Below are positions 2,094 through 25,113 of a stretch of 64,000 nt of DNA, in pieces; position 1 is the first letter of the stretch, and every line of letters starts with the position of its first letter. Where the stretch lies: assembly GCA_024642045.1 (NCBI GenBank), contig JAHEBX010000001.1, positions 17,590-81,589 of the forward strand, in the 5' to 3' direction. The position numbers were made by a program, and so were the translations under genes. The stretch is from Pseudorhodobacter sp. GTDB taxonomy: Bacteria; Pseudomonadota; Alphaproteobacteria; Rhodobacterales; Rhodobacteraceae. The notes under the pieces were generated by a model. That model ran no database searches. It worked only from the letters and a program-made list of their open reading frames with translations, and was not told the origin of the DNA.

Positions 2094-2096
2094 GGC

Positions 2097-4767: not shown

Positions 4768-5689
4768 CAAACCTGTAATCGGCTTTATCGGCCTGGGCTT
4801 TATGGGCCACGGGATGGCGCGGAATTTGCGGCTGAAGGGCTATGAGCTATGGGTCAAGGGCCGTGCCAACCGTGGACCCGTCGAGAGCCTGCTTTCCATC
4901 GGCGCACATGAGGCAGCAAGCCCACAGGAAATGGCGGAAAAGTGTGATATCATCCACATCTGTCTGTCGAACTCGGCTCAGATCGAGGCCGTGATGCGGG
5001 CGCCTGACGGCATTCTTGCAGGTGCGCGCCCCGGTCTGATCGTGATTGACACCTCAACCGCCAACCCCGGCTCGACCGAGGTTCTGGCCGCGGAACTTGC
5101 AGCCAAGGGCGGGCACTTTGTCGATGCACCGCTTGGCGGCACCCCCGTGCAGGCCGAGGCCGGGCAACTCAGCGCCATGGTCGGCTGCGAAGCGGCGGTC
5201 TTTGACCGTGTCGCGCCGGTCATTGGCAGCTGGGCTGCGCGCGCGACCCGCATCGGGCCGGTTGGCAGCGGCCATAAGATGAAGCTTTTGATGAACTTCA
5301 TCAGCCTGTCTTACGGAGCCCTGTTTTCGGAAGTCGTGGTGCTGGGGGCCAAGGTGGGCATCTCGGCCCAGACCATCCGCGAGGTGATCTCGCCAAGCCG
5401 GATGGGCAACGGTTTCTTTGAAACGTTCATGGGGTATGTTGTTGATCGCAATCGCGACAGTCACAAATTCTCGATCGCCAACGCGGCCAAGGATCTGCGC
5501 TATCTCAACGACATGGCCTCGGACGCCAACATGATGAACATTATGGCCGCCGCAGCCCAACACTACTACAGCCATGCGGTCGCAACGGGGCATGAACAAG
5601 ACTACGTCCCGATGCTCTCCGATCTCGTCGGCGCCCTGAACGGCGTCGATATGGAAGATGCCGTCGCAAAAGGGATGACAGGCGCCTGA
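4760..5689 (+). CDS. NAD(P)-dependent beta-hydroxyacid dehydrogenase (3-hydroxyisobutyrate dehydrogenase family)
   Basis: IGFIGLGFMG, DTST, DAPLGG and GHKMKLLMN motifs; start overlaps the end of otnI (4757 is an alternative start). Confidence 0.85.
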   Translation: MSDKPVIGFIGLGFMGHGMARNLRLKGYELWVKGRANRGPVESLLSIGAHEAASPQEMAEKCDIIHICLSNSAQIEAVMRAPDGILAGARPGLIVIDTSTANPGSTEVLAAELAAKGGHFVDAPLGGTPVQAEAGQLSAMVGCEAAVFDRVAPVIGSWAARATRIGPVGSGHKMKLLMNFISLSYGALFSEVVVLGAKVGISAQTIREVISPSRMGNGFFETFMGYVVDRNRDSHKFSIANAAKDLRYLNDMASDANMMNIMAAAAQHYYSHAVATGHEQDYVPMLSDLVGALNGVDMEDAVAKGMTGA

Positions 5690-6056: not shown

Positions 6057-6085
6057 TTGACAGATATGGAACGTTCCATTAGTTA
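6057..6085 (+). promoter_or_regulatory. Sigma70-type promoter of the afr operon
   Basis: TTGACA (6057-6062), 17 nt spacer, TAGTTA (6080-6085); 32 bp before the ATG at 6118. Confidence 0.65.
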
Positions 6086-6100
6086 TTTTGGAACGTTCCA
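6066..6100. promoter_or_regulatory. Tandem LacI-type operators
   Basis: Perfect palindromes ATGGAACGTTCCAT (6066-6079) and TGGAACGTTCCA (6089-6100), central CG, centres 22 bp apart. Confidence 0.8.
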
Positions 6101-6117: not shown

Positions 6118-7122
6118 ATGATTTGGGCGCTGATCGGGGCAAGCACGATTGCCAGCCAGTATATGGTGGATGCTTTGCGCGCCCAGCCCGCGGGCACTGT
6201 CCGCTGGATTATATCTGGCACTGCGGTGCGGGCGGCCGAGTTTGCCGCGGCGCATGACATTCCATATTCAGACACCCATCTGGCGGCGGCTCTGGATGAT
6301 CCGGCCGTTCAGGCCGTCTATATCTCTTCTACCAACGATCGGCACATGGATCAGGCTTTGGGCGCTATTGCTGCTGGCAAGCATGTGCTGTGCGAAAAGC
6401 CGCTTGCGCTGACCGCAAAGGATGCCGCGCAGATCGTTGCGGCGGCAGAGGCTGCCGGTGTGGTCTTTGCCACCAACCATCACCTGCGTTGTGCGGGCAG
6501 CCATCAGGCGGTGCGCGCGCTGATCCACGCAGGACGGATCGGGCGCGTGTTGTCGCTGCGAATTCATCACGCCGTGCATTTGCCGGAAAATCTGCAGGGC
6601 TGGCGGATCAATTCGGCGGCTTCGGGCGGTGGTGTCGTGCCTGATATCACCGTGCATGACGCAGATGTCGCGCGGTTTCTGTTGGGCGAAGACCCGCAGA
6701 GCGTGGTGGCACAAGTGACGAGTTCCGGTTTGGGGCAGGGGGTGGAAGATTCCGCCATGTCAGTCTGGGCCATGCCTTCGGGCGCGATGGTGATGAGCCA
6801 TGAAAGCTTTACTCACCCCTTTGCGGGCTCGGGGCTTGAGGTCCACGGCACAGAAGGCTCGATCTTTGCGCGCGGGGTGATGACGCAGCAGCCGGTGGGC
6901 GAGATTGAGATGGTCACTGCCAAGGGCCGCGAGGTGGTGCGCTTTGAGGCGCATAACCTCTATCAATTTGGCGTTGCGCGGTTTTGTGACGCGGTTGCGG
7001 GCCGCGGGGGCGTGGCGGCGAGCGGATGGGACGGCGTAAAATCCCTTGCGGTGGCCGAGGCCGTACGCCAGGCCGCAGCGACGGGTGCCCAAGTTTCCGT
7101 GGGGTATGGGGTGGCGCCATGA
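6118..7122 (+). CDS. afr: Gfo/Idh/MocA oxidoreductase, 1,5-anhydro-D-fructose reductase-like
   Basis: WALIGASTIA, VYISSTN, GKHVLCEKPLA, TNHHLR, LQGWR, DITVHDAD and EVHGTEGS match the recalled Sinorhizobium Afr sequence along its length. Confidence 0.78.
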   Translation: MIWALIGASTIASQYMVDALRAQPAGTVRWIISGTAVRAAEFAAAHDIPYSDTHLAAALDDPAVQAVYISSTNDRHMDQALGAIAAGKHVLCEKPLALTAKDAAQIVAAAEAAGVVFATNHHLRCAGSHQAVRALIHAGRIGRVLSLRIHHAVHLPENLQGWRINSAASGGGVVPDITVHDADVARFLLGEDPQSVVAQVTSSGLGQGVEDSAMSVWAMPSGAMVMSHESFTHPFAGSGLEVHGTEGSIFARGVMTQQPVGEIEMVTAKGREVVRFEAHNLYQFGVARFCDAVAGRGGVAASGWDGVKSLAVAEAVRQAAATGAQVSVGYGVAP

Positions 7123-8690
7123 GCAAGCTGGTATCCGCAGCCCAGGCCGTTGCCCACATCGAAGACGGCGCGGTTGTCACGGTGTCGTCCTCCTCGGCCT
7201 TGGGCTGCCCTGACCTTGTGCTGAAGGCCATTGGTGCGCGCTTTGACGACAGCGGACATCCGCGTGGATTGACCACAATCCATCCGATCGCTGCGGGGGA
7301 TATGTACGGTGTCAAAGGCGTGGATCACATTGCCAAAGACGGGCTGCTCACCCGGATTTTGGGCGGGTCTTATCCGTCGGGGCCGTCGTCGAAACCGATG
7401 CCCGCGATCTGGCAGATGATCGTTGAAGACCGCGTTGCGGCCTATAACGTACCCTCGGGGATCTTGTTCGACATGCACCGCGAGGCGGCAGCGCGTCGCC
7501 CCGGTGTTTTGACGCGGGTGGGTTTGAAAACCTTTGCCGACCCGATCCGCCAAGGCTGCGCGATGAACGATCTCGCGGCCAAAACCCCGATTGTGAACCG
7601 CGTCGAGTTTCTGGGCGAGACCTGGCTGCACTATCCCAACATCATCCCGACGGTTGCGATCTTGCGCGCAACCACGGCCGATGAGCATGGCAATCTGACC
7701 TACGAGCACGAAGGCGCCTATCTGGGTGGGCTGGAACAGGCGATCTGCGTGCGAAATCACGGCGGTCTGGTGATTGCGCAGGTTTCCCGCGTCACCAAGC
7801 GCGGGTCGCTGCGCCCGCATGATGTGCGCGTGCCGGGCCATCTGGTTGACCTGATCGTGGTTGACGCGGATCAAAAACAGACCTGTGAGACGCCCTATGA
7901 TCCGGCAATTTCCGGCCAGATCATGCGGCCGTGGGAAAGCTTTTCCTTGGCCGAACACGGGGTTGAAAAAATCATCGCGCGGCGCGCGGCGATGGAGTTG
8001 CGGCCCGGCATGACAGCCAATCTCGGCTTTGGTATTTCAGCGATGGTTCCAAGGATCCTGCTGGAAGAAGGTCATCCAGAGGCGGTGACTTGGGCGATTG
8101 AGCAGGGCGCTGTCGGCGGAATGCCTCTGACGGGCTTTGCCTTTGGGTGTGCGTCGAACGCTGATGCCTATGTGCCCTCGCCGCAGCAGTTCATCTATTT
8201 TCAGGGCGCAGGGTTTGACGTGTCGTTCCTGTCGTTCCTTGAGGTGGATATCGAGGGCAACGTCAATGTCTCCAAGCTTGGCAAAAAGCCTTACCTGACA
8301 GCGGGTTGCGGTGGGTTTGTCGACATCACCTCACATGCCAGAAAAATCGTCTTCTCAGGCTGGTTCGAAGCGGGGGCGGAGATTGAGTTGACCGACAAGG
8401 GTCTGCGCGTTGTCACTCCTGGCAAGTTCACCAAGATGGTCGAAGCGGTCGAACATGTCACCTTTTCGGGCGAGCGCGCCCGCGAGCAGGGGCAGGATGT
8501 GATCTATATCACCGAGCGCTGCGTGATGCGGATGGGCGAGCGGGGCATGGTGGCGACCGAAATCATGCCCGGAATTGACCCCGAGCGCGACATCGTTGCG
8601 GCAAGTCAGGGCCGCGTGTCGATTGCGCCGGATGCGATCACTTTGCCACTGTCGCTGCTCCGTGATGAGCCGATGGGGTGGGGAAGATGA
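7119..8690 (+). CDS. Family I acyl-CoA:acetate/3-ketoacid CoA transferase (YdiF/Pct-like, fused)
   Basis: GLKTFADP, ADEHGNL, NLGFGIS, catalytic E in IEQGAVGG, GCGGFVDI and YITERCV motifs. Confidence 0.88.
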   Translation: MSKLVSAAQAVAHIEDGAVVTVSSSSALGCPDLVLKAIGARFDDSGHPRGLTTIHPIAAGDMYGVKGVDHIAKDGLLTRILGGSYPSGPSSKPMPAIWQMIVEDRVAAYNVPSGILFDMHREAAARRPGVLTRVGLKTFADPIRQGCAMNDLAAKTPIVNRVEFLGETWLHYPNIIPTVAILRATTADEHGNLTYEHEGAYLGGLEQAICVRNHGGLVIAQVSRVTKRGSLRPHDVRVPGHLVDLIVVDADQKQTCETPYDPAISGQIMRPWESFSLAEHGVEKIIARRAAMELRPGMTANLGFGISAMVPRILLEEGHPEAVTWAIEQGAVGGMPLTGFAFGCASNADAYVPSPQQFIYFQGAGFDVSFLSFLEVDIEGNVNVSKLGKKPYLTAGCGGFVDITSHARKIVFSGWFEAGAEIELTDKGLRVVTPGKFTKMVEAVEHVTFSGERAREQGQDVIYITERCVMRMGERGMVATEIMPGIDPERDIVAASQGRVSIAPDAITLPLSLLRDEPMGWGR

Positions 8691-9454
8691 GCATGCTTCA
8701 CCTAATTCTCCGGGGTCAGATTGCCGAGCTGCGGCTGGATAACCCGCAAAAGATGAACGCCTTTACTGTCGAGATGCTGACCCAGCTGGCCGGTCATCTG
8801 GAGGCGATAGAGCGCGACGCCGGAATTCGCGCGGTGATGATTACCGCCGAAGGCAACCGCGCCTTTTGCACCGGCGCTGACATCAGCGCCTGGGCCAACC
8901 TGTCAGCGGTGGAATTTGCCCGTCATTGGGTGCGCGATGGCCACCGCATTTTCGACCGGCTTGCGCGGTTGTCCAAGCCGACCATTGCGGTGCTGAACGG
9001 TCATGCCTTTGGCGGCGGGCTGGAACTTGCTGCGGCCTGCGATCTGCGGGTAATGGCGCCCGACGCCAGTCTCGCCCTCCCCGAGGCTGGCGTCGGGATC
9101 GTGCCGGGCTGGTCGGGAACCCAGCGTTTGCTTCGGCTGATGCCCGAAGCCGTGATCAAAGAAATGGCCCTGTTTGGGCATCGCATTACGGCCGCGCGCG
9201 CCTTGGCGATGGGCTTTGTCGCGGCGGTTGACCCAGACCCGCGCGCGGCAGCTAGCGCGTTGCTGGACCGTGCCATCGGGCTGTCGCCACGCGCGGTTGA
9301 GATCACCAAATCGATGATCCACGCCAGCGCGGGCGAAGACCGCGGCGCTATGGTCGAAGCTTTGGGCAGCGCTGCGATTGCTGCAAGCGACGACCGCGAG
9401 GAAGGTGTCAGCGCCTTTCTGCAAAAGCGCAAACCTGAGTTTAAGGGGAACTGA
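8687..9454 (+). CDS. Enoyl-CoA hydratase/isomerase family protein
   Basis: AFCTGADI, GGGLELAAACD and LPEAGVGIVPG motifs (both catalytic Glu present); ATGA overlap. Confidence 0.9.
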   Translation: MSMLHLILRGQIAELRLDNPQKMNAFTVEMLTQLAGHLEAIERDAGIRAVMITAEGNRAFCTGADISAWANLSAVEFARHWVRDGHRIFDRLARLSKPTIAVLNGHAFGGGLELAAACDLRVMAPDASLALPEAGVGIVPGWSGTQRLLRLMPEAVIKEMALFGHRITAARALAMGFVAAVDPDPRAAASALLDRAIGLSPRAVEITKSMIHASAGEDRGAMVEALGSAAIAASDDREEGVSAFLQKRKPEFKGN

Positions 9455-9455
9455 C

Positions 9456-10988
9456 ATGCTTGACCTTACGGTGATCACTGAAGCGACGATTGCGGTGCCA
9501 AATAAACCCTATCGCGCCAGACACTTCATTGCGGGGGCCTATTGCAACAGCGCCGACGGGGCGGTTTCTGAACGCATTTCGCCGTCGCATGGGGTCGTCG
9601 CCAGTATCTCTGCCAAAGGCGGCGCAGCAGAGGCCGAGGCGGCTATTGCAGCGGCAAGAACTGCCTTTGACGATGGCCGTTGGAGCGATGTGCCGGCGCG
9701 TGCACGGGCGAAAGTTCTGAACAAGGTGGCCGATCTGATCGAGGCGAATGTAGAGCGGCTTGCTTTGATCGAAACCATGGAAACGGGCAAGCCGATCAGC
9801 CAGTCGCGCGGGGAATGTGGCGGCGCGGCGGACCTTTGGCGTTACGCAGCCTCGCTTGCCCGCACGTCGCACGGCGACAGCCATAACACCTTGGGCAAGG
9901 ACATTCTGGCGGTCGTGACCAAAGAGCCGATCGGGGTTGTTTCCATCATCACGCCTTGGAATTTCCCGTTCTGGATCCTGAGCCAAAAGCTGCCCTTTGC
10001 GCTGGCCGCTGGTTGTACCTGCGTTGTGAAGCCTTCGGAAATCACCCCATCAACCACCGCGATGCTGGCCGAATTTCTGATCGAGGCGGGGCTGCCCAAA
10101 GGCGTGTGCAACATTGTTCTGGGCGCTGGAAACCCCATCGGCAGCCTGATGAGCACGCATAGCGACGTGGATATGATCACCTTTACCGGCTCGACAGGCG
10201 TGGGCAAGATCATCAGCCAAGCGGCGGCGAATACGCTCAAAAAGGTTGCGTTGGAGTTGGGCGGAAAAAACCCGCAGGTGGTGTTTTCCGATGCCGATCT
10301 GGATCAAGCCGCAGACGCGATTGCCTTTGGCGTCTATTTCAACGTCGGGCAGTGCTGCAATTCCTCGAGCCGCATTATCGTGCATGAGGATATCGCCAAG
10401 GATCTGGTCGAGCGGGTGGTGGCCCTCACGCGGCATGTGCGTTTCGGCAACCCTCTCCATCCTGACACGCAGGTGGGCGCGATTGTAACGCCGGAACATA
10501 ACGGCTCGATTGACGCCCATGTGCGCGCGGCGGTGCGCGCGGGGGCGACGCTGCGGTTGGGCGGCGCGCCGATGGTGGTCGACGGCCTTGGCCAGCAGTT
10601 CTATCAGCCGACCATTCTGACGGGGGTCACCGCAGAGATGCCGATCGCCAGCAGCGAAGTCTTCGGTCCCGTGCTGACCGTGCTGACCTTTCGCACAATG
10701 GACGAGGCGATCGCGCTGACCAATGGCACCACCTACGGCCTTTCCGCCGGGGTCTGGAGCGAAAACGTTCACACCTGTCTTGAATTCAGCCGACGCGCCC
10801 AAGCGGGCACGGTCTGGACCAACACCTGGATGGACGGGTTTCCCGAACTCGCCTTTGGCGGGGTTAAGCAATCCGGCCAGGGACGCGAGATCGGCTCTTA
10901 CGGTTACGACGAATTCCTTGAGGTGAAATCGCACGTCCTGCGCATCGGTCGCACGCGCGCGCCTTGGGTGAAGACCCCGTCGGCCTGA
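9456..10988 (+). CDS. NAD-dependent aldehyde dehydrogenase, sorbosone dehydrogenase-like
   Basis: [25 protein letters not shown] catalytic Cys and EVFGP motifs; subfamily assigned from recalled similarity. Confidence 0.88.
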
Positions 10989-11032
10989 ATGCCGACGGAC
11001 CAAAAGACATAGATCAACTGGGAGGAAGTCTA

Positions 11033-12283
11033 ATGCGTATTATTGGAAAGAAGATGTCGGTGGTTCTGGCGCTTATGGCCAGCACCTCTATGGCGCAGGC
11101 CGAGGATGTCGAGGTGCTGCACTGGTGGACCTCGGGTGGTGAGGCGGCGGCGCTGGGTGTGCTGAAAGACACGCTGAAAAGCCAAGGCATCGGCTGGATC
11201 GACATGCCGGTTTCGGGCGGCGGTGGCGAGGCGGCAATGACCACGCTGCGCGCGCGTGTCACCGCGGGCAACCCACCGACCGCCGTGCAGATGCTCGGCT
11301 TTGACATTCAGGACTGGGCCGCCGAGGGGGCGCTGGGCAATCTGGATGACGTGGCCGCCAAGGAAGGATGGGACGCCGTCGTGCCCCCCGCGCTTCAGGC
11401 CTTTTCCAAGTATGACGGCCACTGGATCGCGGCCCCTGTGAACGTGCATTCGACCAACTGGGTCTGGGCCAACAAGGCGGTTCTTGATGGTTTGGGGATC
11501 GCTCAACCAACCACCTGGGACGAGTTTGTTGCCGCGATGCAAAAGGTCAAGGACTCGGGTAAAACGGCCTTGGCCCATGGTGGCCAGCCTTGGCAAGAGG
11601 CCACCGTGTTTGACGGCGTGGTGTTGTCGGTCGGCGGCACCGAGTTCTACAAAAAGGCCTTTGTCGATCTGGACCCAGAGGCTTTGGGTGGCGCGCAGAT
11701 GGTCGAGGCGTTCAAGCGGATGGAAACGCTGCATTCTTTCACTGACGCCAACTTCTCGGGTCGCGACTGGAACCTGGCCTCGGCTATGGTGATCAATGGC
11801 GATGCGGCCTTCCAGATCATGGGTGACTGGGCCAAGGGCGAGTTCCTGAAGGCGGGCAAAGTGCCGGGCACCGATTTCCTGTGCTTCCGCGTGCCGGGAA
11901 CGGACGGCGATGTCAGCTTCAACTCTGACCAGTTTGCGATGTTCAAGGTCGACTCTGAGGCAGCCAAGGCCGCACAGGCGCAAATGGCCGCAGATATTAT
12001 GTCGCCCACCTTCCAATCCGCGTTTAACGTGGTCAAGGGCTCGGTCCCGGCGCGCACCGATGTGCCAAATACCGCCTTTGACGATTGCGGCAAGAAGGGC
12101 ATGGCTGACCTTGCTGCGGCCTCTGCCTCGGGCAATCTGGTGGGGTCAATGGCGCATGGCCACGCCAACCGTGCTGCGGTCAAGAACGCGATCTATGACG
12201 TTGTGACGGCTGCCTTCAACGGCGAATACGACGCGGAAACGGCAGCCAAAAATCTGGCTGATGCCGTGGCGGCCGCCAAGTAA
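11033..12283 (+). CDS. CUT1 ABC sugar-binding protein 1 (GtsA-like)
   Basis: Signal peptide; [21 protein letters not shown] and [11 protein letters not shown] motifs; RBS GGAGG. Confidence 0.88.
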
Positions 12284-12289
12284 GACTGA

Positions 12290-12318
12290 TTGGGAAAGCG
12301 GCCGGCCCGCTTTCCCAA
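12290..12318 (+). terminator. Perfect 12 bp stem-loop after the binding-protein gene (mRNA-stabilising or attenuating)
   Basis: TTGGGAAAGCGG-CCGGC-CCGCTTTCCCAA. Confidence 0.6.
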
Positions 12319-12387
12319 ACCTGCCGCCCCCAAGCGGGCTTTTCAATTGCAAAGACATCTGTGCCGCGCACAGAAACAGGAGGAACC

Positions 12388-13284
12388 ATGGCATTTTCGA
12401 CCTCTGGCGTGGATATCCGTACCCGCCTTCAGGATTTGATCCCAAAATTGGTTCTGTCTCCGTCCATCGCGGCGATGATGATCTTCGTCTATGGCTTCAT
12501 CGTGTTTACCGTCTATCTCAGCTTTACCAATTCCAAGATGCTGCCCAGCTATGATCTCATAGGTTTTGAGAATTACGCCAAGCTTTGGGCGCTGTCGGCC
12601 TGGTGGACGGCGGTGAGCAACCTTGCGATCTTTGCCTCGCTTTATATCGTGATCTGCACCGCAATCGGACTGACACTCGCCATCCTGCTGGACCAGAAAA
12701 TTCGCGGTGAAGGGGTCTTGCGCCCGATCTACCTTTACCCGATGGCGTTGTCGTTCATCGTGACCGGCACAGCGTGGAAGTGGTTTCTCGACCCCGGAAT
12801 TGGTCTTGAAAATACCATGCACCTTTGGGGCTGGCAGAGTTTCCATTTTGGCTGGATCAAAGATCGTAACATGGCGATCTATACCATCGTCATCGCTGCG
12901 GTCTGGCAAACCTCGGGTTTTGTGATGGCGATGTTTCTGGCCGGGTTGCGCGGGATTGATAACGAAATCCTCAGGGCTGCCCAGATCGACGGGGCCTCTA
13001 ACTGGCAGCTGTATCGCCGGATTGTGATCCCGATGCTGCGGCCGGCCTTCATGTCGGCTTTTGTGATCCTCAGCCATCTGGCGGTGAAATCCTATGACCT
13101 TGTCGTGGCACTGACGGGTGGGGGGCCGGGGCGGGCAACCGAGCTGCCTGCGACCTTCATGTATTCCTATACTTTCACGCGAAATTCGATGGGTATTGGC
13201 GCTTCGAGTGCGGTGATCATGTTGATGACCATCGCGGCGATCATGACCCCTTACCTCTATGCTGAATTGAAGGAGAAGCCCTGA
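12388..13284 (+). CDS. Carbohydrate ABC transporter permease (GtsB-like)
   Basis: PKLVLSPS, multiple TM segments, EAA loop RAAQIDGA; RBS AGGAGG. Confidence 0.9.
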   Translation: MAFSTSGVDIRTRLQDLIPKLVLSPSIAAMMIFVYGFIVFTVYLSFTNSKMLPSYDLIGFENYAKLWALSAWWTAVSNLAIFASLYIVICTAIGLTLAILLDQKIRGEGVLRPIYLYPMALSFIVTGTAWKWFLDPGIGLENTMHLWGWQSFHFGWIKDRNMAIYTIVIAAVWQTSGFVMAMFLAGLRGIDNEILRAAQIDGASNWQLYRRIVIPMLRPAFMSAFVILSHLAVKSYDLVVALTGGGPGRATELPATFMYSYTFTRNSMGIGASSAVIMLMTIAAIMTPYLYAELKEKP

Positions 13285-14162
13285 TGTCTGGAGCAACCCA
13301 AGATACGGCGGTGCGGACCTCTGGCTTCTCCCGGACCCTGATTTACCTTGTGCTGTTGCTGTTTGCGCTGTTTTTCCTGCTGCCGTTCTTTGTGATGCTG
13401 GTGAATTCGCTGAAACCTTTGTCCGAGATTACCGGCGGCAATATGATGGCATTGCCGCAGCATTGGACGATCGAGCCGTGGCTTTCAGCGTGGTCCACAG
13501 CACAGATCGGCGTAGAGCCGACGGGGTTGAAACCCTATTTCGTGAACTCGATCATGATGGTGGTGCCGGCCGTCGCAATCTCGACCGTGTTTGGCGCGCT
13601 GAACGGATATGTGCTGACCAAATGGCGCTTTCGTGGCGATAGCATCCTTTTCGGCCTGATGCTCTTTTCCTGCTTTATCCCGTTTCAGATCGTGCTGATC
13701 CCGATGGCGATGGTCTTGGGCAAAATCGGCCTGGCCGGATCGGTGCAAGGCCTGGTGCTGGTCCATGTGGTCTATGGCATTGGGTTCACCACGCTCTACT
13801 ACCGCAACTATTACGCCTCGTTCCCGACCGAGCTGGTTCGCGCCGCGATGATCGACGGGGCAGGGTTCTTTCGCATCTTTTGGCGGATCATGCTGCCCGT
13901 TTCTGGCCCGATCACTGTGGTCTCGGTGATCTGGCAGTTCACCAATATCTGGAATGACTTTCTGTTCGGGGCCTCATTCGGCGGGCAAAGCCAGCCGATG
14001 ACCGTGGCCCTGAACAACCTCGTGCAATCCTCGACGGGCGTTAAGGAATACAACGTCCATTTCGCAGGTGCGATCCTTGCCGCAGTGCCAACCCTCTTTG
14101 TTTACATCGTTGCAGGCCGCTACTTTGTGCGTGGTCTGATGGCAGGAAGCGTCAAAGGATAA
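13284..14162 (+). CDS. Carbohydrate ABC transporter permease (GtsC-like)
   Basis: ELVRAAMIDGAG EAA loop, WQFTNIWNDFLF, GLMAGSVKG. Confidence 0.9.
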   Translation: MSGATQDTAVRTSGFSRTLIYLVLLLFALFFLLPFFVMLVNSLKPLSEITGGNMMALPQHWTIEPWLSAWSTAQIGVEPTGLKPYFVNSIMMVVPAVAISTVFGALNGYVLTKWRFRGDSILFGLMLFSCFIPFQIVLIPMAMVLGKIGLAGSVQGLVLVHVVYGIGFTTLYYRNYYASFPTELVRAAMIDGAGFFRIFWRIMLPVSGPITVVSVIWQFTNIWNDFLFGASFGGQSQPMTVALNNLVQSSTGVKEYNVHFAGAILAAVPTLFVYIVAGRYFVRGLMAGSVKG

Positions 14163-14261
14163 GGCGACCGTCAGGCAGTTGCAGCCGCCCGACGGTCTTT
14201 CGTTCAACCCTCAGCCCCGTTTGGAACAGACAAGGGCGAACTTTTGAAAAGGAACGACAAA

Positions 14262-15515
14262 ATGCGGCGAATGTCTATGGTCAGTTCACTTGTTTTTGGG
14301 GTGTTTGCCTCTCCCGCGCTTGCACAACCCTCTGTCGAAGTGATGCATTTCTGGACCAGCGGCGGCGAGGCGGCGGCCCTTGGCGCTGTGCGCGATAAGG
14401 TCGTGTCACAGGGCGTGGCATGGGTCGACGCCCCTATCGCAGGGGGCGGCGGCGATCAGGCCAAGACGGCGCTTCAGGCCCGTATTGCCTCGGGCAACCC
14501 ACCAGCGGCCATGCTGATGCTGGGTCAAAACATCATCGATTGGGCGCATGAGGGATTGCTTGGCAATGTCGATGCACTGGCCATGTCCGAAGGCTGGGAC
14601 GCGGTCTTGCCGCAGGCGGTCAAGGATTTCACCAAGATCGACGGCCACTATGTCTCGGTGCCGACCAACGTGCACCGCACCGATATGATCTGGGCCAGCA
14701 AAGCGGCCTTTGACAAGATCGGCGCGCCTTATCCGACAACATGGGACGAGATGAACGCGCTCGCCCCTCGGTTTCTGGCGGCGGGCATCATCCCCTTGGC
14801 GCATGGCGGCCAATCCTGGCAAGAGGCCTATATGTTCGAGGCCGTCGCAATGGGCATTGGGGGCGCCGATTTCTACCGCAAGGCGCTTGTGGATCTGGAT
14901 GACGCCAGCCTGCGCAGCGATACGATGGTTGCCGTGTTTGACGAGATGGCCAAGCTGCGCGGCATGGTCGACAGCAATGCCCCCGGGCGCGACTGGAACC
15001 TTGCCACCGCGATGGTCATCAAAGGTGATGCTGCCATGCAGATCATGGGCGACTGGGCCAAGGGTGAGTTTACCAACGCAGGCAAGACCCCCGGCACCGA
15101 CTACGCCTGCATCCCTGTGCCCAAGGCGAACGGCCAACCCGGCTTTGTGTATCTGGTGAACTCGCTGTCGCTCTTTGCCCAAACCAACCCCGAGGCGGTC
15201 AAAGCACAAGAGGTTCTGGCGAGTGCAATCATGGACAAGGATGTCCAGATTGCGTTCAATAAGGCCAAGGGTGCCATTCCTGCTCGCAATGACGTGGATA
15301 TGTCGGGACTGGATGCCTGCGCGCAAGCTACGGCAAAAGACCTGGCACAAGCTGATGCGGCTGGAACCGCGGTGCCAACATTTGCTGGCACCCATGCGGC
15401 CAACGCGGCCATCGTCGGGGCCGCGACCGATGCGATCACCGAGTTCTTCAACTCTGACGAGACGGCCCAAGAAGGTGCTGCCACTTTGGCGGATGCCATT
15501 CTGGCGGCAAAATAG
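14262..15515 (+). CDS. CUT1 ABC sugar-binding protein 2 (GtsA-like paralogue)
   Basis: Signal peptide; VEVMHFWTSGGE, GRDWNLA and [11 protein letters not shown] motifs. Confidence 0.86.
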   Translation: MRRMSMVSSLVFGVFASPALAQPSVEVMHFWTSGGEAAALGAVRDKVVSQGVAWVDAPIAGGGGDQAKTALQARIASGNPPAAMLMLGQNIIDWAHEGLLGNVDALAMSEGWDAVLPQAVKDFTKIDGHYVSVPTNVHRTDMIWASKAAFDKIGAPYPTTWDEMNALAPRFLAAGIIPLAHGGQSWQEAYMFEAVAMGIGGADFYRKALVDLDDASLRSDTMVAVFDEMAKLRGMVDSNAPGRDWNLATAMVIKGDAAMQIMGDWAKGEFTNAGKTPGTDYACIPVPKANGQPGFVYLVNSLSLFAQTNPEAVKAQEVLASAIMDKDVQIAFNKAKGAIPARNDVDMSGLDACAQATAKDLAQADAAGTAVPTFAGTHAANAAIVGAATDAITEFFNSDETAQEGAATLADAILAAK

Positions 15516-15525
15516 CCTGTCTGCT

Positions 15526-15549
15526 GGCCCCCGCCCTTCGGTGGGGGCC
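15526..15549 (+). terminator. GC-rich stem-loop after the second binding-protein gene
   Basis: GGCCCCCGCC-CTTC-GGTGGGGGCC (one G-U pair); no U tract. Confidence 0.45.
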
Positions 15550-15582
15550 GCTCAAATCGATCACCATAAGGACCGCAACATC

Positions 15583-16695
15583 ATGGGCTTTCTCGATATC
15601 AAAAACGTCACCAAATCCTATGGCAGCGTCAAAGTGCTGCACGAAGTGGATATCGAGGTGCAAGAGGGCGAGTTTCTGGTCCTTGTCGGGCCGTCTGGCT
15701 GCGGTAAATCCACGCTGCTGAACATGATCGCGGGGCTGGAGGTGATTTCCTCGGGCGATATTTCGATCAAGGGGCGGGTGATGAACGGCGTGCATCCGTC
15801 CAAGCGCAATATCGCAATGGTGTTCCAGTCTTACGCGCTTTACCCCAATATGACTGTGGGCCAGAACATGACCTTTGGTCTGGAAATGCACGGCGTACCG
15901 AAACCCGAGCGCGATGCGGCATTGGAGAAGGTCGCAGCGCTCTTGCAGATCACGCCCCTGTTAGAGCGTAAGCCAGGTCAGCTTTCAGGCGGTCAACGCC
16001 AGCGCGTGGCTATGGGGCGCGCGCTTGTGCGCAACCCGGATGTGTTTTTGTTCGACGAGCCGCTCTCCAATCTCGATGCCAAGCTTCGCGTCGATATGCG
16101 TACTGAAATCAAGAAGCTGCACGAGAAGCTCAAGACGACCATCGTCTATGTCACCCACGATCAGATCGAGGCCATGACGCTGTCGACCCGGATCGCGGTG
16201 ATGTATGCAGGCTATGTGCAGCAGCTTGGCACACCCAAGGAAATCTACGACACTCCTGCCAATGTCTATGTGGCAACCTTTATGGGCAGCCCCGCCATGA
16301 ACGTGTTGCCAGCGCACGTGCTGATGCAGGACGATGTTGCGCATGCACGGATCACTGATGCCAATGGGGCCGAGATACTGCTAAAAACGTCACAGCCCAA
16401 TTTGGCAGCTTGGGCGGGCAAAGAGATTTTGTTGGGCATCCGGCCAGAGGCAATCACTGATCCCGAAGGTGCGGACCGCAATTCCAAAAACATCGTGCCG
16501 TTGCGCAATCAGATCAGCGTGACCGAACCCGCCGGGGCGGATACCTTTGTCACCATGACACTTTGTGGCAAAGATGCCGTGGCACGGATGCGCGCCGATG
16601 TCAGCCTGCGCCCGAATGACAGCTTTGAGTTTGCGGTGAATATGGAAAAAGTCGTGGCCTTTGATCCCAAAACCGAAGACCGCATCAAGCCATGA
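15583..16695 (+). CDS. Sugar ABC transporter ATP-binding protein (MalK/GtsD family)
   Basis: GPSGCGKS, LSGGQRQR, FDEPLSNLDAKLR and YVTHDQ motifs, C-terminal TOBE region. Confidence 0.92.
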   Translation: MGFLDIKNVTKSYGSVKVLHEVDIEVQEGEFLVLVGPSGCGKSTLLNMIAGLEVISSGDISIKGRVMNGVHPSKRNIAMVFQSYALYPNMTVGQNMTFGLEMHGVPKPERDAALEKVAALLQITPLLERKPGQLSGGQRQRVAMGRALVRNPDVFLFDEPLSNLDAKLRVDMRTEIKKLHEKLKTTIVYVTHDQIEAMTLSTRIAVMYAGYVQQLGTPKEIYDTPANVYVATFMGSPAMNVLPAHVLMQDDVAHARITDANGAEILLKTSQPNLAAWAGKEILLGIRPEAITDPEGADRNSKNIVPLRNQISVTEPAGADTFVTMTLCGKDAVARMRADVSLRPNDSFEFAVNMEKVVAFDPKTEDRIKP

Positions 16696-18161
16696 CCCCG
16701 GATGTGATCATCATCGGGTCGGGCATGGGCGGGGCCACGCTGGCCGCAGCGCTTGCTCCTACGGGGCGGAGGATTCTGATCCTCGAGCGGGGCGCGCCCT
16801 TGCAACCCTCTGCTGCCGACCGCGACGCAAACGCAATCTTTGGGCGCGGGCAGTTTCGACCGAATGAGACTTGGTACGACGGCGAGGGGCGCGGTTTCAA
16901 TCCGGGCAACTATTATAACGTCGGCGGCAATTCGAAATTCTTTGGTGCGGTGTTTCTGCGCTATCGTTCTGAAGATTTCAGTCCGATCCAGCACCTTGAG
17001 GGGCGCACCCCCGGCTGGCCGATCAGCTATGATGATCTGGAGCCCCATTATCAGCGCGCCGAGACGATGTATCAGATCCGCGGCCAGTTGGGCCAAGACC
17101 CGAGCGAGCCTGCGCACTCGGGCCATTATCCCTATCCACCCGTTCCCGATGAACCCGCGATCGCTGATCTGCGCGCCAGATTGCAACGGCTGGGGCTGCA
17201 CCCCGCCTCATTGCCGCTTGGTGTGGATTTGGAAAAGTGGCTTGCAGGTGGGCAGACGACTTGGGACGCCTATCCCAACACGACCCAAGGCAAGATGGAT
17301 GCCGAAACCATCGGCATCGCCCAGGCGCTTCAGCACGCGAATGTGACGCTGCGCACGGGGCAGGCGGTGCGACGGCTGCTTGCTGACGCCTCGGGTCGCA
17401 TCAGTGGGGTCGAGCTTGAGGGCAGCGGCGAGGTCTTGCAGGCGCCCATAGTGGTGCTAGCCGCGGGTGCGGTGCAATCGGCCGTGCTCTTGCTGCGCTC
17501 GGGGCTTGCGAATTCATCCGATCAGGTCGGCCGCAATTTCATGAACCACAACACCTCGGCTGTGCTGGCGTTTCATCCGTTGCGGCGCAATCGGTCGGTT
17601 TATCAAAAGACGCTGATGGTCAATGATTTCTACCTCGGCGGCGGGCCGAAAAACGCGCCTTTGGGCAACATCCAGATGCTGGGTAAGATCACAGGCCCGA
17701 TTTTGACTGCGAATGCCCGCTTGCCTCGGGTTCTGGCGAACTTCATCTCGCACAGGACATTGGACCTTTATGCGATGTCCGAAGACCTTCCCGACCCGGA
17801 AAGCCGCATCATGCTGCAAGGCGAGCGGATCGTGATGGATTGGCGGCAAAAGAACTGGGCGGCGCATCTGGTGCTTGTGGCTAAGCTCAAGGCACTGCTG
17901 CGGCGGGCGGGCTATCCGGTTGTGCTTTCAAAGCCCTTTGACAGCCGCACGCCCTCGCATCAATGCGGCACCGCGCGGATGGGGCGCGACGGCACCGGCA
18001 GCGTTGTTGATATCTTTTGCCGCAGTCACGACCACCCCAATCTGTTTATCACCGATGCCTCGGTGTTGCCGACCTCGGCCGCCGTCAACCCGGCGCTGAC
18101 CATTGCCGCGCTGGCCTTGCGCGCGGCCGATCACATCATCGCTACCGATTTTGCTGCCTGA
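16692..18161 (+). CDS. GMC family FAD oxidoreductase 1 (sugar dehydrogenase/oxidase-like)
   Basis: IIGSGMGG, VGGNSKFFG, SHQCGTARMG and VNPALTI (His/Asn pair); no signal peptide. Confidence 0.85.
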   Translation: MTPDVIIIGSGMGGATLAAALAPTGRRILILERGAPLQPSAADRDANAIFGRGQFRPNETWYDGEGRGFNPGNYYNVGGNSKFFGAVFLRYRSEDFSPIQHLEGRTPGWPISYDDLEPHYQRAETMYQIRGQLGQDPSEPAHSGHYPYPPVPDEPAIADLRARLQRLGLHPASLPLGVDLEKWLAGGQTTWDAYPNTTQGKMDAETIGIAQALQHANVTLRTGQAVRRLLADASGRISGVELEGSGEVLQAPIVVLAAGAVQSAVLLLRSGLANSSDQVGRNFMNHNTSAVLAFHPLRRNRSVYQKTLMVNDFYLGGGPKNAPLGNIQMLGKITGPILTANARLPRVLANFISHRTLDLYAMSEDLPDPESRIMLQGERIVMDWRQKNWAAHLVLVAKLKALLRRAGYPVVLSKPFDSRTPSHQCGTARMGRDGTGSVVDIFCRSHDHPNLFITDASVLPTSAAVNPALTIAALALRAADHIIATDFAA

Positions 18162-18177
18162 AGACTGGAGACGCCTC

Positions 18178-19764
18178 GTGCCCGAAGGATTTGATTTCAT
18201 TGTGATCGGCGGCGGATCGGCAGGCTCGGTCGTGGCGGCACGGCTGACCGAGAACCCTTTGGTCAGCGTGTTGCTGATTGAGGCAGGCGGGCGCGACCGC
18301 CATCCGTTTTATCACCTGCCTGCGGGCTTTGCCAAAATGACCAAAGGCATCGGGTCGTGGGGCTGGGAAACCACGCCGCAAAAGCACATGCAAAACAAGG
18401 TGTTCCGCTATACCCAAGCCAAGGTGATCGGCGGCGGGTCTGCGATCAATGCGCAGATCTATACCCGTGGCAACGCCCAGGATTATGACGAGTGGCGGCA
18501 GATGGGCTGCACCGGTTGGGGCTATGACGACGTGCTGCCCTATTTCCGCAAAGCCGAGGATAACGACACCTTTGACAATCGCTTTCACGGCAAGGGCGGC
18601 CCGCTGGGAGTCAGCCAGCCGATAGCACCCCTGCCGATCTGCGAGGCTTATTTCGAGGCCGCGGCCCAGATCGGCATTCCGCGCAACATGGATATCAACG
18701 GCGAGACGCAGGACGGCGTTTGCTATTACCAACTGACCCAACGCCACGCGCGCCGCTCTTCGGCGGCGATGGCCTATCTTGCGCCGAACCGTGGCAGGCC
18801 GAACCTGACGGTGAAAACCGGAGTCGAAGTCCGCCGCCTGATTGTGACTGCGGGCCGTGCCACTGGGGTGGAACTGATGGACGGCCGTCAGTTGATGGCG
18901 GCGCAAGAGGTCGTGCTGTCCAGCGGTGCTATCGGCACGCCGCGCCTGTTGCAGCTTTCGGGGATTGGACCCGCCGATCATCTCCAGGCCCTCGGGATCA
19001 AGGTCGTTTTCGATCAGCCGCAGGTCGGTGAAAATCTGCAAGACCATCTGGACCTTTACTGCATCGCCGAGCTTTCTGGGCCCTACAGTTATGACCGCTT
19101 TGCCAAGCCGCATCTGGCGGCACTGGCGGGTCTGCAATATCTTTTGCAACGCAAGGGGCCTGTGGCCTCGTCGCTGTTTGAAACCGGTGGCTTTTGGTAT
19201 GCCGACCCCGATGCGCGCTCGCCGGACATTCAGTTTCATCTTGGCCTTGGCACAGGGATCGAGCATGGCGTGGTTGCCATGCCGCAAGGGGGCATCACAT
19301 TGAACTCGTGCTATTTGCGCCCGCGTTCACGCGGGTCGGTGCGGCTGCAATCGGCGGATCCTGCGCAGATGCCGTTGATCGATCCGAATTATCTCTCTGA
19401 TCCCGTTGACCGCGAGATGTCGATCCGTGGCCTGAAACTGACCCAGCAAATCCTGTCGCAACCTGCGCTGAAAGACTTTGTCCTTGCCCAACGGTTGCCC
19501 GGCCCCGAGGTGAAAACCGAGGCGGATTACTTCAACTTTATCAGCCAACATTCGAAAACTTCGCACCATTGCGCCGGCACTTGCCGCATGGGCGCTGATG
19601 CGGCGGCAGTGGTTGATCTGCAGTTGCGCTTTAACGGCATTGCGGGGCTGCGCATTGTCGATAATTCAATTATGCCAAAGGTGATTTCGTCCAATACCAA
19701 CGCGGCAGCGATCATGATCGGCGAAAAGGCTGCCGATATGATCAAAGCCCAGCATGGAGCCTGA
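18178..19764 (+). CDS. GMC family FAD oxidoreductase 2 (choline/sorbose dehydrogenase-like)
   Basis: IGGGSAG, GGGSAINAQIYTRG, VGENLQDH, HHCAGTCRMG and SNTNA motifs; GTG start with GGAG RBS. Confidence 0.88.
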   Translation: MPEGFDFIVIGGGSAGSVVAARLTENPLVSVLLIEAGGRDRHPFYHLPAGFAKMTKGIGSWGWETTPQKHMQNKVFRYTQAKVIGGGSAINAQIYTRGNAQDYDEWRQMGCTGWGYDDVLPYFRKAEDNDTFDNRFHGKGGPLGVSQPIAPLPICEAYFEAAAQIGIPRNMDINGETQDGVCYYQLTQRHARRSSAAMAYLAPNRGRPNLTVKTGVEVRRLIVTAGRATGVELMDGRQLMAAQEVVLSSGAIGTPRLLQLSGIGPADHLQALGIKVVFDQPQVGENLQDHLDLYCIAELSGPYSYDRFAKPHLAALAGLQYLLQRKGPVASSLFETGGFWYADPDARSPDIQFHLGLGTGIEHGVVAMPQGGITLNSCYLRPRSRGSVRLQSADPAQMPLIDPNYLSDPVDREMSIRGLKLTQQILSQPALKDFVLAQRLPGPEVKTEADYFNFISQHSKTSHHCAGTCRMGADAAAVVDLQLRFNGIAGLRIVDNSIMPKVISSNTNAAAIMIGEKAADMIKAQHGA

Positions 19765-19765
19765 T

Positions 19766-20086
19766 ATGATCCGTCACATCGTTCTGATTAAATTTTCCGA
19801 AGGAGTCAGCGAGGCAAAAATCGCCGACCTTTTCACTGAATTGAAGCAGATTGAGAGCAAACTTGCCGGTCTGCGTGCCATAACGGCAGGGCGGAGCGAA
19901 AGCCCCGAGCAGATGGAGCGCGGCTATATGCACGGCTTTGTTGCTGATTTCGACAGCTGGGCGGATTTGCAGGCCTATCAGGACCACCCAGACCATCAGC
20001 TTTTGGGCAGCAAGCTGGTGGCCCATGCTGTGGGGGGCAAGGATGGGATCTTGTGCTTTGACCTTGAGGTGAACGAGACACGCTAA
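19766..20086 (+). CDS. Dabb family (stress-responsive alpha/beta barrel) protein
   Basis: MIRHIVLIKF, GYMHGFVADF and AYQDHPDH motifs; start 1 bp after the GMC2 stop. Confidence 0.8.
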   Translation: MIRHIVLIKFSEGVSEAKIADLFTELKQIESKLAGLRAITAGRSESPEQMERGYMHGFVADFDSWADLQAYQDHPDHQLLGSKLVAHAVGGKDGILCFDLEVNETR

Positions 20087-20191
20087 CAGGCCAGAAAGTA
20101 TTTCGTTACTCAGGTTGTTGTTTCACCCAAGAACAAAAAGCGTCACAGTCAGTCTGAGAACCTGAGCGACGTGACCGGAGGCCGACGATTC

Positions 20192-21208
20192 ATGACTGCT
20201 GATCGCAGACCGACCATCATAGATGTCGCGCATAAGGCGGGGGTTTCAAAATCGACAGTCAGCCTCGTGCTGCAAAACAGTGCATCGGTGCGCGAAGAAA
20301 CCCGTGTCTTGGTGCGGCAAGCTATGGCGGATCTGAGCTATGTCTATAACCGCGCAGCGGCCAATATGCGGATGTCGAATGCAGGCCTGATTGGTCTTGT
20401 GATCAATGACTTGCGCAACCCCTTCTTTACTGAATTTGCAACATCCTTGCAGATGGCGCTTTCGGCGCGCGGCTATGCCGTCGTGATCGCCAATACCGAT
20501 GAAGACGCCGGTTTGCAGGCGCGCACCATTGGCACAATGATTGAACATGGCGTGTCGGCCTTTATCATCTCGCCTGCCTACGGCGAAGTCGTGCCCGCCT
20601 TTGACGCGATGTTGCGCGCGGGCGTTCCGACAATGCAGGTCCTGCGTAAGGTTGATGGCCGAACCGGGCAGTTTCCCTTTGCCGGGCCCAACTACCCAGA
20701 GGGCAGCACGCTTGCAACGCGGCATCTTTTGGCGCAGGGCGCACGGCGGATTGCCTTTGTCGGCGGGCTTGCGGGGCGCGCGGTAACTCAGGAACGCATG
20801 TCGGGGTATCTGGAGGTGCTGCGCGCCGAAGGGATAGAGCCGCTGGTTCTGTCTGGAAAATCCTCACGCGCCTTTGGCCGCGAGATGGCGCATCAGCTGG
20901 CGCAGCAACACCCCGACTGTGATGCGGCACTTTGCTTTAACGACCTGGTGGCGCTGGGCATGTTGGTTGGGTGTAACGAGCTGGGTCGCAAGGTTGGGCC
21001 AAATTTCAAGATCGTCGGCTTTGACGACATCGAAGACGCAGCGCAAGCCTTTCCAACACTCAGCTCGGTGCGCTGCGATGTGGCGGGGTTTGGTCGACAG
21101 ATCGCAGCGACCGTCTTGGACTGGCTGGAAAACGGCGTGGTGCCCGCCGCCGAAAGCCGATCTGTCGTGCAATTGATCGAGCGGCAGTCCAGCACCACTG
21201 GGGCCTAG
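20192..21208 (+). CDS. LacI family transcriptional regulator
   Basis: PTIIDVAHKAGVSKSTVSLVL HTH, YVYNRAAANMR hinge, NPFF and VGFDDI motifs; RBS GGAGG. Confidence 0.93.
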   Translation: MTADRRPTIIDVAHKAGVSKSTVSLVLQNSASVREETRVLVRQAMADLSYVYNRAAANMRMSNAGLIGLVINDLRNPFFTEFATSLQMALSARGYAVVIANTDEDAGLQARTIGTMIEHGVSAFIISPAYGEVVPAFDAMLRAGVPTMQVLRKVDGRTGQFPFAGPNYPEGSTLATRHLLAQGARRIAFVGGLAGRAVTQERMSGYLEVLRAEGIEPLVLSGKSSRAFGREMAHQLAQQHPDCDAALCFNDLVALGMLVGCNELGRKVGPNFKIVGFDDIEDAAQAFPTLSSVRCDVAGFGRQIAATVLDWLENGVVPAAESRSVVQLIERQSSTTGA

Positions 21209-22146
21209 ACCACCATGCCCGACAGCCGCGCGCCCACCTCTTTCGGCACGCGGGCCCCATAATGCTGCAGCACTTCAGCCGCGACGCGCTGCCCAAGCCC
21301 TATCGCCTGTTCGGCACCCAATCCGCGCATCCGTCCGGCAAGGTAGCCTGCATTGAACGCATCGCCCGCACCCGTGGTGTCGCGGATGTTTGCAACGGGC
21401 GGGGTAGGGACCGCGCCTTGGGTCTCGGGCGTGCGAAAATGCACCGCTGCGCTGCCATTCTTGACGACGATCTCTCGCACCCCCGCCCGCGCGAGCCGTG
21501 ACACCGTCGCCGCTGGGTCGGCATCCAGAAAATGCGCGGCCTCGTCGTCGAAACTGGGTAGGGCGATATCGGTCAAGATGAGCATCTGCTGCACCGTATC
21601 GCGGATCTCTTGCGTCGAGCCCCACAGACGCGGGCGGATGTTGGGGTCAAATGCAATCACGGACCCCGCCGCCCGTGCTGACTGCAAAACCGCAAACAAC
21701 CTGCTGCGCGCCTCTGGTGCAAGAATGGCCAGCGTGATCCCCGAAAGATGGATCAAACCCGCCCCGTCGATGGCCGCCGAAAGCGCTGCTGCGTCATTGG
21801 CTAGATGACGCGCCGCAGACTGGCTGCGCCAATAGTGAAAGCTGCGCTCGACCCCATCCAGTTCAATCAGATAAAGCCCCATTGTCCGCGTGCTGTCGCG
21901 CATCAGGCCCGCGGGGTTCAGCCCATCCGCCGCCAGCTCTGCGGCAAAGGCATCGGAAATGGCATCGCACCCCAAGCCGCTGACAAAGCCCAGATCGGCG
22001 CGCGGGCCCAAAAGCTTGGCCATATGCCAGACGGTGTTAAAGGTATCGCCTGCAAAGTTCCGCCGAAAGAGCCCATCGCCCACCGGCGCAAGTTCCACCA
22101 TAGCCTCGCCGATCGCGACCATTTTGGTATTCGCAATCGTGATCAT
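21205..22146 (-). CDS. kdgK: PfkB sugar kinase, 2-keto-3-deoxygluconate kinase-like
   Basis: IGEAMVEL, AGDTFNT, ERSFHYWRSQSAAR, FDPNIRPRLW and DTTGAGDAFNAG motifs typical of KdgK. Confidence 0.75.
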   Translation of the reverse strand: MITIANTKMVAIGEAMVELAPVGDGLFRRNFAGDTFNTVWHMAKLLGPRADLGFVSGLGCDAISDAFAAELAADGLNPAGLMRDSTRTMGLYLIELDGVERSFHYWRSQSAARHLANDAAALSAAIDGAGLIHLSGITLAILAPEARSRLFAVLQSARAAGSVIAFDPNIRPRLWGSTQEIRDTVQQMLILTDIALPSFDDEAAHFLDADPAATVSRLARAGVREIVVKNGSAAVHFRTPETQGAVPTPPVANIRDTTGAGDAFNAGYLAGRMRGLGAEQAIGLGQRVAAEVLQHYGARVPKEVGARLSGMVV

Positions 22147-24224: not shown

Positions 24225-24282
24225 CGTGCACTCCTTGGGATTGAGTTCGGTTTTGTCATCGTTTTGGTGGAATCCAGTCTTA

Positions 24283-24326
24283 TGGAACGTTCCAATTGCT
24301 ATAGACGCGATAACACATCAGGTCAA
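24283..24326 (-). promoter_or_regulatory. Sigma70-type promoter plus third LacI-type operator for the flavoprotein-kdgK operon
   Basis: Minus strand TTGACC (24326-24321), 17 nt, TATAGC (24303-24298), then TGGAACGTTCCA (24294-24283). Confidence 0.75.
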
Positions 24327-24382: not shown

Positions 24383-25105
24383 TCATTTGGTGTCGGACAG
24401 ATCGGAAAACCGAAACCGCGCTTTGATCGGCAAATGGTCAGAGGCTTTGCGTGCCAAGGGGCTGTCGTGCGGGGCTACATCCTGCAGCAGGCCCTTGTGA
24501 CAGCTCATAATCCGATCATAGGGCAGCAGGGGGTAACGCGATGGAAAACTGGGGGGCGGCGCGCTGACCGAAAACTGCTCAGCAAAGGTGCGAAACATCG
24601 TGGCAGTACGCGACCATTCATTCAGATCGCCCATCAGCAGCGTTGGACGGTCGGGCAGCGAAGCCACTTTATCAAGGATCGCGCGCGCCTGTGCTGCGCG
24701 CGAGCGGGGCAGCAGGCCAAGATGGGTATTCACCACCCGCAAAGGTTGGCCGTTGACCTTAAGATCGGTGATGATCGCACCGCGCGGCTCAAAACCGGGC
24801 AGGATCAGCTTGTGAACCTGCTGAACAAGCGCATTGCGCACCAAAAGCAGGTTGCCGTGCCAGCCATGTGCCGGGCCTGTCTGGTCCAGCGGAATCGGGA
24901 TCAGGCCCAGATCGCGGCGGATGCTGTCCAGATCCAGAAGGCCGGTCCGGGTGCCAAACCGCGTGTCCACCTCTTGCAGCGCCAGAATATCCGCGCCGAT
25001 TTCGGCAATGACGGCAGCGGTGCGGTCCAGATCGCGGCGCCGGTCGGTGCCGACGCCCTTATGGATGTTGTAAGAGGCCACCGAGAGGTCTTCAGGTTGC
25101 GGCAT
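24383..25105 (-). CDS. Endonuclease/exonuclease/phosphatase family protein (YbhP-like)
   Basis: SYNIHKGVG, ALQEVD, HLGL, MGDLNEW and SDHLP motifs; AGGAG RBS. Confidence 0.87.
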   Translation of the reverse strand: MPQPEDLSVASYNIHKGVGTDRRRDLDRTAAVIAEIGADILALQEVDTRFGTRTGLLDLDSIRRDLGLIPIPLDQTGPAHGWHGNLLLVRNALVQQVHKLILPGFEPRGAIITDLKVNGQPLRVVNTHLGLLPRSRAAQARAILDKVASLPDRPTLLMGDLNEWSRTATMFRTFAEQFSVSAPPPSFPSRYPLLPYDRIMSCHKGLLQDVAPHDSPLARKASDHLPIKARFRFSDLSDTK

Positions 25106-25113
25106 CGGCCCTC

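Follow-up and report, generated by a model that had tools for sequence, protein, structure and literature searches.

A conserved third operator very probably joins an orphan flavoprotein-kinase operon to the AfrR regulon of a Pseudorhodobacter afr cluster

We describe a third copy of a 12-bp palindromic operator, O3, in a 64,000-nucleotide stretch of Pseudorhodobacter sp. DNA (assembly GCA_024642045.1, contig JAHEBX010000001.1, positions 17,590 to 81,589; hereafter the window, in whose coordinates all positions are given). Judged from sequence, O3 is very probably a functional, conserved operator of the LacI-type repressor encoded at the same locus, predicted to be bound and to serve repression, and it would put the minus-strand flavoprotein/PfkB-kinase operon in the same regulon as the plus-strand afr operon. 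A preliminary description of this DNA had proposed such a common regulon with the afr-CoA transferase-GMC genes. The proposal is now backed by the genome-wide uniqueness of the motif, a conserved promoter/operator architecture, co-occurrence with the regulator and synteny.

O3 provides regulatory evidence, independent of gene order, that links an orphan fumarate-reductase-like flavoprotein and a PfkB kinase to the afr/CoA-transferase/GMC cluster. It also extends the computational AfrR regulog to a new genome and a new target promoter. The regulon itself would be an ordinary local one, repressed in the standard LacI manner. Its value is in the annotation of an uncharacterised pathway; one repressor with its three perfect operators offers a simple experimental route to the inducer and, from there, to the substrate.

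Architecture of the flavoprotein promoter

The core of O3, TGGAACGTTCCA, is a perfect 12-bp palindrome centred on CG, with half-sites TGGAAC and GTTCCA. It stands in front of the minus-strand operon, in the following arrangement:

24321..24326, minus strand: -35 box TTGACC, with its first base 32 nt 5' of the operator start
24298..24303, minus strand: -10-like hexamer TATAGC, weak against the E. coli consensus and placed by the conserved -35/operator spacing
24283..24294, no strand assigned: operator O3, TGGAACGTTCCA, with A/T-rich flanks (ttaTGGAACGTTCCAatt); the same site is kept 5' of flavoprotein units in other genera
24231..24236, minus strand: Shine-Dalgarno sequence AAGGAG, 6 nt 5' of the TTG start codon
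22143..24224, minus strand: flavoprotein of 693 aa, FAD_binding_2 (SdhA/NadB superfamily, Pfam), first gene of the operon
21205..22146, minus strand: PfkB-family sugar kinase, KdgK-like (Pfam), overlapping the flavoprotein gene by 4 nt

Read along the minus strand, the order is TTGACC (24326-24321), a 17-nt spacer, TATAGC (24303-24298), the trinucleotide aat and TGGAACGTTCCA (24294-24283). This is as the preliminary description had it, with an exact 12-mer just past TTGACC-N17-TATAGC and 5' of the flavoprotein gene. O3 lies 3 nt downstream of TATAGC, and a 46-nt leader separates it from AAGGAG. Outside the core, three positions on each side are biased towards A/T at low information (0.4-0.5 bit), which would bring the site to 18 bp in total; the length criterion for LacI-family operators is 16-22 nt in total.

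LacI-family operators are typically even palindromes, with a central CG in 1173 of 1303 motifs, and more than 75% of them fall between -140 and -30 relative to the start codon (PMC4052901). O3 has both the even palindrome and the central CG, and its position at -70 to -59 relative to the flavoprotein TTG start (24224) is inside that range. The operators of Cra/FruR and PurR are also even palindromes with a central CpG, and local sugar-catabolic repressors are encoded beside their targets. The present site resembles them in its even palindrome, in its central CpG and in the repressor gene beside the targets; in addition, its half-site TGGAAC aligns in register with TGAAAC, the half-site of Cra. 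It differs from the Cra/FruR and PurR operators in that a strongly conserved core of 12 bp is combined with weak A/T flanks, about 18 bp altogether.

A strict scan for E. coli-type sigma-70 promoters called neither the flavoprotein promoter nor the afr promoter, because both -10 hexamers are without the terminal T. We nevertheless retain the assignment, since the -35 box is conserved and its distance to the operator is fixed in orthologous loci. An RNA-level role for the O3 region appears unlikely: an Rfam search for RNA elements matched no family, and the 5' leader folds no better than its shuffled versions (z = 0.68).

The afr promoter and the plus-strand operon

The two other copies of the palindrome belong to the promoter of the convergent plus-strand operon, 18 kb away. 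The features on this side of the locus are:

6057..6085, plus strand: afr promoter, TTGACA (6057-6062), N17, TAGTTA (6080-6085)
6067..6078, no strand assigned: operator O1, within the 17-nt spacer of the afr promoter
6089..6100, no strand assigned: operator O2, 3 nt past the afr -10 hexamer and 32 nt from the TTGACA start
6118..20086, plus strand: operon of the genes from afr to the Dabb protein gene (Pfam), with conserved synteny
6118-7122, plus strand: afr, Gfo/Idh/MocA reductase, first gene of the operon
7119-8690, plus strand: fused family-I CoA transferase (Pfam)
8687-9454, plus strand: enoyl-CoA hydratase (crotonase; Pfam)
9456-10988, plus strand: aldehyde dehydrogenase (Pfam)
10964-16695, plus strand: sugar-type ABC transporter with two binding proteins (Pfam)
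16692-19764, plus strand: two GMC flavoenzymes (Pfam)
19754-20086, plus strand: Dabb protein (Pfam)
20171..21208, plus strand: LacI-family regulator, AfrR orthologue (Pfam LacI and Peripla_BP; probable start ATG 20192), last gene of the plus-strand operon

O2 and O3 have an identical geometry: in both, the gap to the -10 hexamer is 3 nt and the distance to the first base of TTGAC is 32 nt. The flavoprotein promoter is a single-operator version of the afr promoter, where O1 and O2 are centred 22 bp apart on the same face of the helix. Tandem operator pairs heading the cluster are conserved in other genera, with a spacing of 20-26 bp.

The afr product matches the structures of 1,5-anhydro-D-fructose reductase 2GLX (2e-92) and 4KOA (2e-90) over its full length; going by these matches, the regulated operon contains a predicted 1,5-anhydro-D-fructose reductase gene. 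None of the enzymes of the cluster reaches its curated NCBIfam cut-off.

A separate plus-strand gene set is found just 5' of the afr promoter (window 1203-5689) and is devoid of an AfrR site. It encodes a 3-hydroxyisobutyrate-type dehydrogenase, a DUF1537-type kinase (SBD_N and NBD_C), a class II aldolase, a xylose-isomerase-like TIM-barrel protein and a second dehydrogenase. We take it to resemble the gene sets for catabolism of four-carbon acid sugars (threonate/erythronate).

The 12-mer is confined to one locus of the genome

In the window, the 12-mer occurs at 6067, 6089 and 24283 only, in agreement with the earlier remark that it had been noticed only at the two outer promoters of the convergent locus. 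Across the assembly (3,485,874 bp in 265 contigs, 96% complete), exact TGGAACGTTCCA is found at these three positions, in the two promoters of the locus, and nowhere else, whereas base composition would predict 0.16 copies (Poisson P(>=3) = 6e-4). A motif frequent throughout the genome had been named in advance as a sign against a shared regulon; with three exact copies in 3.49 Mb, it is anything but frequent.

Near-matches are not enriched: copies with two mismatches number 69 against 105 expected, and there is one copy with a single mismatch against 6 expected. The latter (C27:44930) is within a coding region, and we set it aside.

Conservation of the operator in orthologous loci

We mapped synteny and motif occurrence across 80 flavoprotein loci and 18 further regions from genomes of the family. 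The flavoprotein gene is nearly always found within a cluster of the order coaT-ech-aldh-ABC-gmc1-gmc2-dabb-regulator-flavoprotein-kinase. Where it forms a separate transcription unit, the exact 12-mer stands at the head of that unit, in which a gene for a Gfo-type oxidoreductase additionally precedes the flavoprotein gene in some loci.

The exact 12-mer heads a flavoprotein-containing transcription unit in 22 loci (21 of them distinct). In 18 of the 22, TTGAC is present 30-33 nt upstream of the operator, with unrelated spacers in between; given a background frequency of TTGAC at that offset of 0.0046, the binomial p is about 1e-34. The remaining four operators have no TTGAC at the expected offset. 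Conservation of the motif in orthologous loci, which had been proposed as a check on the common regulon, is therefore seen both in the site itself (22 loci) and in its spacing to the -35 box (18 loci). The tandem version of the operator is also found at the flavoprotein promoter in four loci (L048, L075, L078 and L152).

Five loci (L011, L034, L056, L082 and L087) have the flavoprotein gene right behind the regulator gene and on the same strand; there it lacks an operator of its own, as expected for co-transcription with the regulator gene. A search for an operator directly 5' of the flavoprotein gene in the Rhizobium loci found none, and there the gene sits inside a long co-directional cluster. 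A recurrent CGGAACGATCCG, about 3.1 kb upstream of the Rhizobium flavoprotein start, falls in a stretch matching gmc2 and is probably coding; we do not consider it an operator.

Two variations of this arrangement deserve a description. In a Salaquimonas metagenome-assembled genome (L046, 8922-12145), the variants TGGATCGTTCCA and TGGAACGATCCA head both an afr-flavoprotein unit and the coaT unit, so regulation of the flavoprotein unit by this type of operator extends outside Rhodobacterales. In the close relatives of Jann_3927, with loci of the Roseicyclus type (L099-L125, L128, L133, L137, L142, L157 and L177), a single operator, either exact or with one mismatch, separates the ABC ATPase gene from gmc1. 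The division of the regulon into transcription units thus differs between lineages, with a new AfrR-controlled promoter at each cut.

Identity of the regulator

RegPrecise lists a LacI-family regulog named AfrR, annotated '1,5-anhydro-D-fructose utilization'; it is a computational prediction, with the effector given as unknown (Ravcheev et al. 2014, PMC4052901, supplement). The regulog is already known in this form, and the preliminary description lacked it. Its Rhodobacterales part (regulog 5551) comprises Jann_3927 of Jannaschia sp. CCS1, with 1 regulon and 3 sites, and its Rhizobiales part (regulog 5550) comprises RL1820, SMc04401 and others, with 6 regulons and 19 sites (PMC4052901).

The regulator of the present locus is 64% identical to Jann_3927 over the full length (331 aa) and is the best match to it in its own genome (422 against 146 bits, with at least nine other LacI-family paralogues present); we therefore regard it as the AfrR orthologue. 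Its identity to RL1820 is 39%. All regulators found together with the motif share an invariant recognition helix, AGVSKSTVSLVLQ, and hinge, GYVYNRxAAx(M/L)R. Both elements are the same even in the Rhizobium AfrR proteins, which are 36-39% identical overall and have TGGATCGTTCCA or TGGAACGTTCCA in their upstream regions. The unrelated LacI proteins of loci L088 and L067 differ at helix and hinge positions and are without the motif.

One hinge position varies. It is Met here and in many orthologues (AANMR) and Leu in others (AANLR, AATLR), while the operator is unchanged. In PurR and LacI, the same position of the hinge helix is occupied by the DNA-intercalating Leu; the Met found here, and the Leu of many orthologues, take the place of this CpG-inserting residue.

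The present locus resembles the AfrR regulog in its orthologous regulator with identical recognition helix and hinge, in the afr gene heading the regulated operon, and in the number of sites, three here as listed for Jannaschia. A difference is seen in the close relatives of Jann_3927, which have the extra site before gmc1 and no flavoprotein. It is therefore probable that the Rhodobacterales regulog does not include the site at the flavoprotein promoter.

Literature searches for the 12-mer and for the gene set of the cluster returned nothing. In searchable main texts, 'AfrR' gave unrelated matches only, and we found no experimental paper on AfrR or on the motif; searches by locus tag retrieved SMc04401 in a single context, a computational network study reusing the RegPrecise motif.

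Motif and regulator co-occur across the family

We surveyed 100 other genera of the family, with one genome each. The exact motif is present in 20 of the 100 genomes and a regulator orthologue in 19; 14 have both, five the regulator only and six the motif only (Fisher p = 7e-9). Of the 19 genomes with the regulator, 11 have the motif at least twice, which is the case in none of the 81 without it (p = 5e-10). Among the five genomes that have the regulator but no exact copy, four carry variants with one mismatch next to the cluster, singly or in pairs and mostly as TGGATCGTTCCA.

In the six genomes that have the motif but lack the regulator, a single copy is present each time. A control word was found once each in 11 of the 101 genomes searched, and the single copies match this rate. 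One genome, G089, holds eight exact copies of TGGAACGTTCCA (L179-L186), far above chance; they are apparently inside unrelated coding regions, and none of them adjoins the afr cluster of that genome. The 12-mer can hence occur without regulatory meaning.

Genome G075 serves as a negative control, having a flavoprotein cluster and a non-orthologous LacI protein (35% identity, different recognition helix) with no linked site. Its locus L088 (G075:C1:538001-558000) is a flavoprotein, gmc2 and ABC cluster with two LacI genes whose products are 34-35% identical to AfrR; these have a different recognition helix, and no TGGAACGTTCCA site is found. It seems that a non-orthologous LacI protein has taken the place of the regulator here.

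Proposed regulation of the two operons

We now propose a scheme for the control of both operons. We infer that AfrR binds O3 as a dimer, since the protein ends without the C-terminal tetramerisation helix of LacI. Placed just downstream of the -10 hexamer, the dimer would cover about -3 to +9 of the flavoprotein promoter, with the predicted transcription start (about 24291) beneath the bound repressor. Without inducer, repressor on O3 would block RNA polymerase binding or open-complex formation, and the same repressor on the tandem O1 and O2 would block the afr promoter 18 kb away. A pathway metabolite would then release it, and both convergent operons would be induced together. The result would be one small local regulon of two convergent operons, two promoters and three sites. 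Because the regulator gene is the last of the plus-strand operon, AfrR presumably also controls its own gene. DNA looping between sites 18 kb apart we judge unlikely, as no LacI-type C-terminal extension is evident.

We weighed this scheme against three others. AfrR might bind O3 without simple occlusion of the promoter, the site acting instead as a roadblock to read-through from the phospholipase-D/EEP genes, or having an activating or anti-activating function. Indeed, the genes upstream (24383-26703) run in the same direction, no terminator-like site is found between them and the operator, and the -10 element is weak. Read-through from them could add flavoprotein expression that is independent of the O3 promoter. 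However, the fixed distance of 30-33 nt between TTGAC and the operator points to a dedicated promoter, an overlap with -10/+1 is the classical position of a repressor, and other genomes keep the -35/operator module despite a different upstream neighbour. We consider a role other than occlusion unlikely.

It is very unlikely that the palindrome is read by another transcription factor in place of the LacI protein encoded at the locus. Binding by the latter is a prediction, and the genome does offer further paralogues of the family as candidates; the motif, though, is restricted in this genome to the locus of AfrR, follows its orthologues across genera, is absent where a non-orthologous LacI protein replaces it, and is accompanied by an invariant recognition helix. 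As for the third copy being a chance occurrence or a non-functional relic with no regulatory role, it is the explanation to which we give least credence, and we hold it to be highly improbable. The single exact copies in six regulator-lacking genomes, the coding-region copies of G089 and the occurrences of the control word speak in its favour. Against this, the genome has three copies instead of the expected 0.16, gathered in two promoters of a single locus, and the same site with the same -35 spacing recurs 5' of the orthologous gene in many genera with unrelated flanks.

The flavoprotein, the kinase and the pathway

Orthologues of the flavoprotein, 69-74% identical, are found in many Rhodobacterales and in Rhizobium, Devosia and relatives. 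Comparison with NCBIfam gives distant matches only, all below cut-off, and comparison with the PDB gives distant SdhA/FrdA matches only. The kinase scores 250 bits on the KdgK equivalog model NF052444, whose cut-off is 400; we therefore do not name it KdgK (2-dehydro-3-deoxygluconokinase) and treat it as a member of the PfkB family.

From the shared operator, the preliminary description had gone on to KDG-like chemistry as the end point of the pathway. This part is not supported: the kinase stays below the KdgK cut-off, no KDPG aldolase is encoded in the locus, and the kinase gene is missing beside the flavoprotein gene in the Rhizobium clusters and absent from many orthologous clusters. By contrast, regulation and synteny give good support to the flavoprotein and kinase being in the same functional unit as the afr/CoA-transferase/GMC genes. 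Since the flavoprotein is present in 8 of the 100 genera, against 19 with the regulator, the flavoprotein-kinase pair is a facultative module.

Tentatively, and as a reading that we would not quite call probable, the AfrR regulon may mark a catabolic pathway not yet described, which would be widespread in Rhodobacterales and Rhizobiales and go beyond the known 1,5-anhydrofructose reductase step. It would make use of a CoA transferase, a crotonase, an aldehyde dehydrogenase and two GMC enzymes, with the orphan SdhA-like flavoprotein and the KdgK-like kinase as a facultative module that gains its own AfrR-controlled promoter whenever it becomes a separate transcription unit. If this is true, the operator is a direct handle on the substrate, through inducer screening with an operator-reporter construct.

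Finally, the stop codons of the two convergent operons overlap in CTAG (window 21205-21208), the regulator ending with TAG at 21206-21208 on the plus strand and the kinase with TAG at 21207-21205 on the minus strand. There is no intergenic space and no terminator-like site between the regulator and kinase genes, and the two operons must therefore transcribe into each other.
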